A stretch of 31,594 bases of DNA, taken from UHGV virus genome UHGV-0304743. One strand, written 5' to 3'. Both the position numbers and the translations under genes were made by a program. Of the stretch, positions 15,787 through 15,918 are shown in pieces (the stretch's first letter is position 1; the number at the start of each line of letters is the position of its first letter). This DNA comes from a virus. The notes beneath the pieces were generated by a model. The model was given only the letters and a program-made list of their open reading frames with translations, had not been told where the DNA came from and did not search any database.

Positions 15787-15918
15787 CAGAAGACCGTTTA
15801 CAGCAAAACTTAAACAATCTATTTCTCCGGTAAAGAAAAGGCGAAGGTTCGATTCCTTCACTCGGCAGATGTCGAGTTGGTGTAATGGTAGCACTTAAGA
15901 TGATAAACAACGGTCTGG
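15787..15918 (+). ncRNA. Candidate Y-RNA-like (YrlA-like) ncRNA: terminal stem CAGAAGACC/GGTCTGG enclosing a permuted tRNA-like domain (T-arm, then acceptor-like hairpin, then D-arm-like)
   Basis: T-arm GAAGGTTCGATTCCTTC (15843-15859); ACTCGGC-agat-GTCGAGT hairpin (15860-15877) where a tRNA would have separated acceptor strands; then TG plus GTGTAATGGTAGCAC D-arm-like (15880-15894); no anticodon arm. Confidence 0.45.

Follow-up and report, generated by a model that had tools for sequence, protein, structure and literature searches.

Why does a phage carry, between two of its transfer RNA (tRNA) genes, what reads as a tRNA with its halves in the wrong order, and with which partner might such an element work? 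The question arises from the UHGV virus genome UHGV-0304743, a stretch of 31,594 nucleotides (nt) analysed here over its full length and called the window, which comes from a FelixO1-like phage (Felixounavirus). A preliminary description, made from the letters alone, had pointed to a permuted tRNA-like element at 15787-15918 and had likened it to the tRNA-mimic domain of the bacterial Y RNAs known as YrlA. This element, termed module D, is quite probably a tRNA-mimicking member of a Y-RNA-like set of small RNAs that the phage encodes together with a Ro60-like ring protein.

Module D lies within a 429-nt spacer that runs from tRNA-Asp (15562-15638) to tRNA-Lys (16068-16143), and its parts are as follows.

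15784-15921, + strand: module D as a whole, the tRNA-like candidate Y RNA, a bulged terminal stem with its contents (folds, RNAalifold consensus, covariance model R1)
15784-15787 with 15918-15921, + strand: outer closing stem UUAC/GUAA, 4 bp (minimum free energy (MFE) and centroid folds)
15787-15795, + strand: 5' end segment CAGAAGACC (read from the sequence)
15788-15790, + strand: AGA of the AGA/G internal loop, facing the bulged G15917 (folds)
15791-15798 with 15909-15916, + strand: inner closing stem AGACCGUU/AACGGUCU, 8 bp (folds, RNAalifold)
15799-15806, + strand: single-stranded motif UACAGCAA (conserved)
15822-15838, + strand: V or anticodon-arm-like hairpin UUUCU-CCGGUAA-AGAAA, 5 bp with a 7-nt loop (fold, Rfam tRNA alignment)
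15843-15859, + strand: T arm GAAGG-UUCGAUU-CCUUC (sequence and fold)
15860-15877, + strand: closed acceptor stem ACUCGGC-AGAU-GUCGAGU, 7 bp (sequence and fold)
15878-15879, + strand: UG (U8 G9) ahead of the D arm (sequence)
15880-15894, + strand: D arm GUGU-AAUGGUA-GCAC (GTGTAATGGTAGCAC), with A14, G18, G19 and A21 (sequence, fold, models)
15912-15918, + strand: 3' end segment GGTCTGG (read from the sequence)

The T arm, acceptor hairpin, D arm and closing stems are all present in both the MFE and the centroid folds, and the T arm, the acceptor hairpin, the TG, the D arm and the end sequences that the preliminary description had read by eye were found exactly where it had placed them. Its terminal stem between CAGAAGACC and GGTCTGG was right in that these ends do pair in the folds, and too short, as the structure extends 3 nt further on each side. 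Its statement that there is no anticodon arm did not hold, as the 5-bp hairpin with a 7-nt loop at 15822-15838 stands just 5' of the T arm, and the Rfam tRNA model aligns 15822-15859 as an anticodon arm, a variable loop of four bases and the T arm at 22 bits, under its gathering score of 29. This is the sole partial tRNA match, and module D is in neither the ARAGORN nor the Rfam tRNA set. Module D is a complete tRNA that is circularly permuted, opened near positions 26/27, and has its acceptor closed by a tetraloop.

The non-chance status of module D rests on comparative evidence, not on folding energy. A detector requiring a T arm, a hairpin starting exactly at the 3' acceptor position, 2 nt and a D arm with GG found one site on the + strand of the window, which is module D; the - strand and shuffled sequence gave no site. 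For the T-acceptor-D core a covariance model, R1, was built from seeds taken only from non-Felix sequences, with four rows misaligned by MAFFT left out, and ranked module D first in the window at 59.2 bits (E 4e-15), while junctions between neighbouring tRNAs reached at most 35.3 bits. Over the 500 bases around module D the identity is 99.8% with Escherichia phage LinBro and 98.8% with Salmonella phage FelixO1, and coverage of these bases reaches at least 80% in 240 of the 252 matching phage records. An alignment of ten distinct versions, drawn from Felixounavirus, Suspvirus and Mooglevirus genomes and from IMG/VR contigs (sequences cited by L number throughout), was submitted to RNAalifold, which independently yielded the outer stem, inner stem, T arm, acceptor and D arm.

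Within this Felix-family alignment the T arm, D arm and closing stem are nearly unchanged and the linkers flanking the T and D arms vary. The acceptor takes the form ACACGU-UACG-GCGUGU in SUSP2, Sf17, KMM4 and ESh22 and ACCCUUC-GCCAAACA-GAAGGGU in Moogle and HP1, with the strands ACCCUUC/GAAGGGU also in L105, so that in the Ounavirinae two-sided changes occur in three of the seven acceptor pairs, with up to three pair types each. Between families the T arm covaries as well. Comparison with related phages, which the preliminary description had recommended, gave the same permuted structure with compensatory changes and no normal tRNA at the site.

Module D is one of four or five related small RNAs between phage tRNA genes. 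The 19-mer pattern AGAAGACC-NNN-TACAGCAA has four copies in the window, all on the + strand and starting at 15146, 15313, 15701 and 15788, and exact copies of AGAAGACCNNNTACAGCAA number four against 0.33 expected. The four modules share the design AGAAGACC-NNN-UACAGCAA ... GGUCU-G, and every one of them folds with a 4-bp outer stem, an AGA/G loop, a 7-8-bp inner stem, a single-stranded UACAGCAA and a variable interior. The outer stems differ from copy to copy yet all pair (UGAC/GUCA, UUGC/GCAA, GAGC/GCUC and UUAC/GUAA, the last being that of module D). The three siblings are the following.

15142-15220, + strand: module A, in the tRNA-Glu/tRNA-Met spacer; outer stem UGAC/GUCA, inner stem AGACCAA/UUGGUCU, UACAGCAA at 15157-15164
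15309-15375, + strand: module B, in the tRNA-Met/tRNA-Asn spacer; outer stem UUGC/GCAA, inner stem AGACCGU/ACGGUCU, UACAGCAA at 15324-15331
15697-15776, + strand: module C; outer stem GAGC/GCUC, inner stem AGACCAA/UUGGUCU, UACAGCAA at 15712-15719

Modules A to C are plain hairpin RNAs of 67-80 nt in tRNA spacers, and module D alone carries a tRNA-like insert. Modules A and B fill their spacers almost exactly, module B is found too in Moogle, SUSP2 and Sf17, and the fold of module C has a z score of -2.5. The stem design AGAnnnn...nnnnUCU-GA is common to the four window modules and to distant phages. Beyond module D, overlapping its last two bases, lies a further structured RNA, which contains what may be counted as a fifth, miniature module.

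15920-16064, + strand: third structured RNA, 145 nt, a 24-bp terminal stem with a multibranch loop (z score -7.2, beaten by 0 shuffles)
16021-16039, + strand: mini fifth module CAGAC-CUUAAGCAA-GUCUG, inside the multibranch loop of 15920-16064

This RNA has no Rfam match. It is kept in Moogle, HP1, ESh22, KMM4, SUSP2 and Sf17, its long stem covaries, and in those relatives AAACC-CUUUAGCAA-GGUUU replaces the mini-module.

A candidate protein partner is encoded on the same strand, in a gene that stops 974 nt upstream of module D.

13395-14810, + strand: gene for the Ro60-like protein, 471 aa, with a helical ring domain and a vWA domain whose MIDAS motif (metal-ion-dependent adhesion site) reads DVSGSM

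The protein matches Pfam DUF2828 (E 4e-29) and DUF7788 (E 1e-42) and belongs to PHROG 850, 'RNA-binding protein'; there was no Pfam TROVE match. Against the sequences of PDB chains a single-sequence search returned nothing, and a profile reached only E ~1 to the Ro60 vWA region. The likeness appears at the level of structure. An AlphaFold2 model made from 35 homologues (predicted local distance difference test 88.7, predicted template-modelling score 0.88) was compared with the PDB using Foldseek, and the 12 best matches were all Ro60/Rsr/TROVE proteins, with E values from 4.5e-9 to 1.7e-6 and template-modelling scores up to 0.65. The best were the Ro60/TROVE protein of Thermus phage phiLo (E 4.5e-9 and 1.9e-8), followed among the 12 by Xenopus and human Ro60 and Deinococcus Rsr. 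These alignments were full-length, at ~520-550 columns, and all remaining hits were to generic vWA domains at E>=3e-3. The MIDAS pattern DxSxS (DVSGSM) is invariant among homologues. On the strength of the predicted model, the product of 13395-14810 is taken to have the Ro60 fold and to be a remote, DUF2828/DUF7788-type relative of TROVE Ro60.

Homologues of this gene occur in at least 710 phage records, from FelixO1-like phages, P100-like Listeria phages, KVP40-like Vibrio phages, Campylobacter, Enterococcus and Staphylococcus phages and cluster-L mycobacteriophages, and the mycobacteriophage genes annotated as 'Ro-like RNA binding protein' are 30-34% identical to it. DUF2828 proteins are also known in plants and as mimivirus-like proteins. 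Past work found gp130 of phage Bas63 to be Ro60-like in structure, encoded upstream of tRNA genes and able to counter the Ppl defence; its RNA partner was only guessed, with 'some tRNA genes' as possible Y RNAs, and no RNA was identified (PMC11482910, the PhageMaP preprint). Purified virions of Listeria phage CKA15 yielded 20 peptides of its Ro60-like protein CKA15_055 (57% coverage), and three very abundant unannotated transcripts of this phage were mapped within 2 kb upstream of the homologous gene, too coarsely for assignment to modules (PMC12282133). The virion finding suggests that the Ro60-like protein may enter the cell together with the genome and work at a very early stage of infection. 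By analogy with these systems we propose it as the protein partner of the modules, and module D as most likely the missing 'Y RNA' partner of the Ro60-like phage anti-defence protein.

Whether the pairing of gene and RNAs extends beyond the FelixO1-like phages was addressed with 80 IMG/VR loci around homologues of the protein, of which 75 encode proteins with 39-48% identity to that of the window. In the 75 loci, permuted tRNA-like cores numbered 17 on the gene strand, 0 on the opposite strand and 0 in shuffles. Cores in L164, L180 and L181 were tandem ordinary tRNA genes with similar acceptors and were dropped, as was a doubtful one in L174. All 74 matches of R1 on the distant loci fell on the gene strand. 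Modules, taken as a stem of at least 6 bp with T-N-C-[A/C]-G-C-A-[A/G], occurred 141 times on the gene strand and 27 times on the opposite strand, with about 20 per strand in shuffles, and with a stem of at least 7 bp and a free tail the count of distinct UNC[A/C]GCAA modules was 113 against 26. A looser detector in which only C..GCAA was fixed proved too noisy (378 against 258) and was replaced by these tighter ones. Module lengths are bimodal, at 45-75 and 90-135 nt, and many modules adjoin the gene directly. Modules are present in 59 of the 75 loci. Around the homologues 209 tRNAs lie on the gene strand and 0 on the opposite strand, with at least three tRNAs in 24 loci and fewer than three in 51.

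The two kinds of evidence coincide: stem+motif modules, which were defined independently, enclose at least 15 of the cores, spread over at least 12 loci, and the resulting RNAs measure 96-133 nt. In mycobacteriophage Rumpelstiltskin a simple module, a tRNA-like one (R1, 40.8 bits) and another simple module follow in tandem directly 3' of the Ro-like gene, and in Listeria phage List-36 two simple modules stand directly before the homologue, with an RtcB ligase gene 1.3 kb downstream and tRNA genes around. The acceptor varies in this wider family: L208, L135c and L157 have 7 bp, L140 has 6 bp capped by UUCG, L134 and L135b have 3-5 bp, and L166 and L161b lack it. The T and D arms are always there. 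Because the acceptor varies while these arms persist, the conserved unit is the tRNA elbow together with the terminal stem and motif, and the Felix lineage has kept the acceptor hairpin.

Several of these loci hold other RNA features. The List-36 RtcB gene, annotated 'tRNA splicing ligase', lies at 6810-8021 of L209 (NC_024364.1), an arrangement reminiscent of the bacterial rsr-yrlBA-rtcBA operon. At 2426-2977 of the same locus, inside a 1-kb gap free of annotation that lies 1 kb upstream of the Ro60-like gene, a ROOL RNA was matched (RF03087, 91.5 bits; gathering 99.1), which may be one of the abundant unannotated transcripts of CKA15. L035 and L009 each carry a permuted tRNA-like element in a large tRNA array, and hold a permuted two-piece transfer-messenger RNA (tmRNA; 6948-7355, - strand, 97 bits) and a standard tmRNA (4843-5286, - strand, 90 bits), respectively. 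In L157 the Ro60-like gene is followed 4 kb downstream by a group I intron at 11696-11922 (Rfam 71.5 bits, E 4e-16). At 4703-4811 of L135 a simple module (4731-4784) is nested in a near-perfect longer hairpin, AAGAUCCCUAAAGAAAGAGGUU...AACCUCUGUCUUUAGGGAUCUU, which attracts spurious Rfam matches to microRNA precursors; the terminal stems of some family members are thus much longer, as in canonical Y RNAs.

If the modules are the RNA partners of the ring protein, they would be transcribed with the tRNA array and freed by the processing enzymes of the tRNAs on either side. The Ro60-like protein would dock on the bulged stem with UACAGCAA, as Ro60 does on the conserved stem of Y RNAs, and the effector part would be the variable interior or, for module D, its tRNA-shaped domain. 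The tRNA elbow formed by the T-loop and D-loop could recruit a host or phage factor that reads tRNA shape, and module D might gate or tether the ring protein in the way that a Y RNA tethers Rsr to PNPase. Since the window acceptor has 7 bp with a 4-nt loop, cleavage by RNase P at 15870/15871 is plausible, as reported for the YrlA of M. smegmatis. The occurrence of N-CCA in the acceptor loop of three independent lineages (the Moogle type, L190b with GCCAAUU and L080 with UCCAU) suggests that the opened acceptor end may be used in some lineages. Given that Bas63 gp130 counters Ppl and that RtcB neighbours the Listeria homologue, the biological output is probably RNA/tRNA surveillance (quality control) or counter-defence.

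A different reading of the same RNAs is that they act in cis, as signals for processing, punctuation or stability in the tRNA operon or as a regulatory site in the mRNA of the Ro60-like gene, with the tRNA-like part recruiting RNase P. The modules all sit in tRNA spacers or abut the start or stop of the protein gene, and tRNA-like structures are known as RNase P entry sites. This reading is nevertheless improbable, as the modules follow the protein gene even where few tRNAs are near (51 of the 75 loci have fewer than three, against 59 with modules), and the single-stranded 8-mer is kept across phages of Proteobacteria, Actinobacteria and Firmicutes, which suggests a dedicated trans-acting reader. 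The combination of terminal stem, motif, variable or tRNA-like insert and multiple copies is, moreover, the Y RNA design seen in YrlA and YrlB.

Module D could also be a working tRNA, namely a circularly permuted two-piece tRNA-Thr(GGU) whose acceptor is opened by RNase P and completed by 3' trimming or CCA addition, whose two pieces are held together by the closing stem, and which is then charged and decodes ACC/ACU. The 5-bp/7-nt hairpin at 15822-15838 carries GGU at the anticodon position and is aligned by the tRNA model; its loop, CCGGUAA in the window, is CUGGUAA in SUSP2 and Sf17, a fully canonical loop and a perfect match to that of tRNA-Thr(GGU). The acceptor has 7 bp, as does the M. 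smegmatis YrlA that is cut by RNase P and receives CCA, and in the Moogle lineage (Moogle, HP1 and L105) G-CCA and then a 4-nt spacer come right after the 3' acceptor strand, with CCA also in L190b and L080. The loop is, however, not conserved: the window has C33 in place of U33, L110 and L125 have only 6 nt, ESh22 has CUAUAAA, and the whole V hairpin of Moogle is entirely different. The UACG tetraloop of the SUSP2 type leaves no room for a discriminator and CCA, the hairpin is replaced and the acceptor sometimes missing in distant relatives, the enclosing stem and motif also occur on RNAs without any tRNA part, and the window array already includes a tRNA-Thr(UGU). A decoding tRNA is therefore very unlikely, and the variation among these loops suggests that the hairpin is probably a relic of the anticodon arm of tRNA-Thr(GGU), with decoding lost and the constraint gone.

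Annotation software has met the same hairpin. GenBank records REP5-REP12 carry a 131-nt 'tRNA-Thr_GGT' spanning the 3' end of module C and the 5' two-thirds of module D (in REP5, OQ174504.1 26414-26544, or L207 200-330, corresponding to about 15739-15869 of the window), a label that would follow from the derivation of the hairpin from tRNA-Thr(GGU). In other GenBank records small 'hypothetical protein' open reading frames (ORFs) are drawn over these RNAs. Both kinds of feature are probably misannotations.

It is extremely unlikely that module D is instead the functionless, decaying remnant of a tandem tRNA duplication, in which the 3' half of one copy met the 5' half of the next. The order of the parts is what would be expected once the outer halves are lost, the Moogle version resembles '3' end-GCCA-spacer-5' end', and tandem paralogous tRNAs can mimic the pattern, as the false positives in L164 and L181 did. 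A decaying remnant would not be expected to persist in 240 of 252 matching phage genomes, nor to hold its T and D arms invariant while the flanking linkers vary. The acceptor strands have changed together three times and are still complementary, and this covariation largely refutes the remnant, in agreement with the preliminary description, which had argued from the intact, adjacent acceptor strands that the element is no gene fragment left by a rearrangement. The same arrangement also recurs, always on the gene strand, beside Ro60-like homologues in unrelated phages, within the frame of stem and motif. Finally, that the CAGAAGACC...GGTCTGG units are the ends of small mobile elements (resembling miniature inverted-repeat transposable elements, or homing-related) spread in the tRNA region has next to no chance of being right, for although the units are short, bounded by inverted repeats, present at 4-5 per 1 kb and accompanied in the same array by a weakly HNH-endonuclease-like ORF, their orientation relative to the protein gene is strictly biased, their outer stems differ between copies yet pair, which indicates selection on RNA rather than conserved DNA termini, and copies stand at orthologous positions in different genera.

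Against the preferred reading of module D as a tRNA-mimicking, Y-RNA-like partner of the ring protein stand the following observations. The folding energy of module D is ordinary (z score -1.4 to -1.9). The seeds of R1 were picked by a detector that requires pairing, which makes its 98% paired cells and its covariation score partly circular, and in the Felix family the T and D arms are invariant and so say nothing there about pairing. Only about 12 of the 75 distant loci have a tRNA-like version within 6 kb, and the acceptor hairpin is not universal, leaving its role uncertain. The Rfam YrlA model (RF02553) gave no match at E<=10 on 15630-16075 or on 15775-15930 and none at E<=1 on the Rumpelstiltskin element, and the GNCGAA motif of YrlA is absent, the 5' part of module D, CAGAAGACCGUUUACAGCAAAAC, having no CGAA.

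The wider surroundings of the modules include these features.

tRNA array of the window, all + strand: 25 tRNA genes (ARAGORN 25, Rfam 24)
18639-19196: gene of unknown function inside the tRNA array, DUF7338 (E 6e-62)
19585-20382: gene of unknown function inside the tRNA array, DUF7217 (E 2e-87)
20989-22605: large terminase gene, after the tRNA array

A scan for promoters and terminators gave counts not above chance. Just 3' of tRNA-Asp, at 15645-15667, is a G+C-rich hairpin, GAGAGGGCUAUUUAGCCCCUCCC, which is kept in the Moogle and SUSP2 relatives and, having no trailing U run, is not a typical terminator. A weak tRNA match at 16624-16702 was made by Rfam only (31.7 bits) and is absent from the ARAGORN set; the start of a 132-aa ORF at 16669-17067, with a weak HNH-endonuclease match below the cut-off (E 0.007), overlaps it, and 16624-17067 may be a degenerate tRNA disrupted by, or lying beside, a homing-endonuclease remnant.

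Ro60-Y RNA particles are a classic RNA-surveillance system, of which phage versions are only now under study. If module D and its siblings are the RNAs concerned, the annotated tRNA genes among which partners had been guessed would be the wrong features, and the mechanism could be tested directly through the defined stem, the 8-nt motif and the member shaped like a tRNA. It would also follow that an entire branch of tRNA-mimic Y RNAs escapes the Rfam YrlA model, and that the hypothetical ORFs and the 131-nt 'tRNA-Thr' annotated over these RNAs can be corrected. A search of the accessible literature returned no paper identifying these RNAs, and for the 8-nt motif it returned only primers and work on Dictyostelium.

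Among known systems, two-piece tmRNAs are made when processing opens the acceptor and the pieces stay base-paired. Like these and the permuted tRNA genes of the Cyanidioschyzon merolae type, module D has its 3' half ahead of its 5' half in the gene. It differs from both in having no conserved anticodon, no bulge-helix-bulge (BHB) splicing motif and no tag reading frame, and in several lineages its acceptor is closed by stable tetraloops. A tmRNA was rejected for want of an ARAGORN call and a tag frame, and a substrate of group I or BHB-type splicing was rejected as no such motifs and no Rfam match were found.

A further comparison is with the Class I RNAs of Dictyostelium and other dictyostelids. 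These are abundant RNAs described since 2004, of no known function and reported as 'found in no other organism'; by their published definition they are ~60 nt long, with a 6-bp terminal stem, an invariant 5' G, the start AAG, the end C-UGU and, beside the 5' strand, an 11-nt motif, CCUUACAGCAA, in which U, C, C, A and A are nearly invariant. The simple phage modules are 45-75 nt long, with stems of at least 7 bp, an aa-AG start, U-N-C-[A/C]-G-C-A-A and a ...CU-G[A/U]U tail. In both, a short terminal stem joins the ends of a multicopy RNA of about 55-60 nt and the motif (CC)UUACAGCAA stands directly 3' of the 5' strand; the Class I start AAG and end C-UG(U) compare with AAGACC...GGUCUG in the window, and a phage example reads aaAGAUUAGG-UACAGCAA...CCUAAUCU-GU. 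The agreement falls at start and end positions that were free in the detector, and is one between a consensus and a published description only. The Rfam Dicty_Class_I model (RF01414) aligns full-length to four phage modules, at 16.6 bits (module C, 15705-15772) and 12.8 bits in the window and at 22.3 and 15.0 bits in L135, scores far under the gathering threshold of 41.5; it gave no match at E<=1 across 62 kb.

Class I RNAs differ in being transcribed from eukaryotic RNA polymerase II/III genes with a DUSE (Dictyostelium upstream sequence element) promoter, and the only protein shown to partner them directly is Rnp1A, an RRM protein, with no known link to a Ro60-like protein; a pull-down with DdR-21 recovered Rnp1A, GuaB, NdkC and the uncharacterised DDB_G0281243. 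That the stem+UNC[A/C]GCAA phage RNAs belong to the same RNA class as the dictyostelid Class I RNAs is a tentative proposal from these sequence resemblances, and on balance a doubtful one. If true, a Ro60-like (DUF2828) protein would have the Class I RNAs as its Y-RNA-like partners, with DDB_G0281243 as a candidate for that protein; a second, widespread Ro60/Y-RNA-type system would span phages and eukaryotes, and a 20-year-old orphan RNA class would gain its first mechanistic handle.

Closer at hand is Bas63 (Escherichia phage JohannRWettstein; H66), where gp130 is the same gene and the RNA region has 97.6% DNA identity to that of the window; the candidates proposed here differ from those guessed there in being unannotated spacer elements and not annotated tRNA genes. 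In Thermus phage phiLo, Ro60 binds two adjacent Y-like RNAs, Yrl1 and Yrl2, and host PNPase, and a counter-defence role has been proposed (PMC12135203). The window and phiLo both combine a Ro60-fold protein (the phiLo structure 9l5y is the second-best structural match to the window protein) with adjacent Y-like RNAs. Yrl1 and Yrl2 were defined by CGAA together with a stem-bulge-stem, and their description does not present them as tRNA mimics (PMC12135203), whereas the window RNAs have another motif and one of them is a tRNA mimic.

The closest architectural parallel is YrlA itself, known from bacteria and some phages, which is bound by Ro60/Rsr and bears tRNA modifications (psi55, D). Its gene lies no more than 4 kb from that of Ro60, on the same strand, and the RNA has a 5' GNCGAAN0-1G motif, a proposed Rsr contact, and a tRNA-like domain ordered V, T, acceptor-like stem and D, in which the anticodon-stem position leads into the protein-binding stem; a second Y RNA, YrlB, is often alongside, and the M. 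smegmatis YrlA, with a 7-bp acceptor, is an RNase P substrate and receives CCA (PMC4201824, Chen et al. 2014). In module D, the V hairpin (15822-15838), T arm, closed acceptor and D arm follow in the same order, on the same strand as and less than 4 kb from a Ro60-fold gene, with the caveat that its product is a remote DUF2828-type protein; the T and D arms are near-invariant, the acceptor has 7 bp, and Y-like RNAs without a tRNA-like part stand alongside, as YrlB does. The likeness to YrlA that the preliminary description had put forward is borne out in the order of the parts (PMC4201824) and in the adjacent Ro60-fold gene, and breaks down at the level of formal identity, since RF02553 and the Rfam Y_RNA model, against which it had proposed a search with Infernal, give module D no match and GNCGAA is absent. 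Elements in DUF2828 loci score 39.2, 39.1, 29.6 and 24.7 bits with the YrlA model, and similar elements of other tRNA-rich viral contigs 33.7-40 bits, so that relatives reach 24.7-40 bits, significant but below the gathering score of 69. The window RNAs differ further in carrying U-N-C-[A/C]-G-C-A-A right after the stem instead of GNCGAAN0-1G, in their DUF2828/DUF7788 partner, only a structural relative of TROVE Ro60, and in sitting in a phage tRNA array in 4-5 copies. Because the Rfam model and the GNCGAA motif do not apply and the protein is only a remote Ro60 relative, module D is akin to YrlA in architecture and genomic logic and is not a formal YrlA member. The sequences point instead to a second type of Ro60-like/Y-RNA system, widespread in phages and with a recognition motif of its own.

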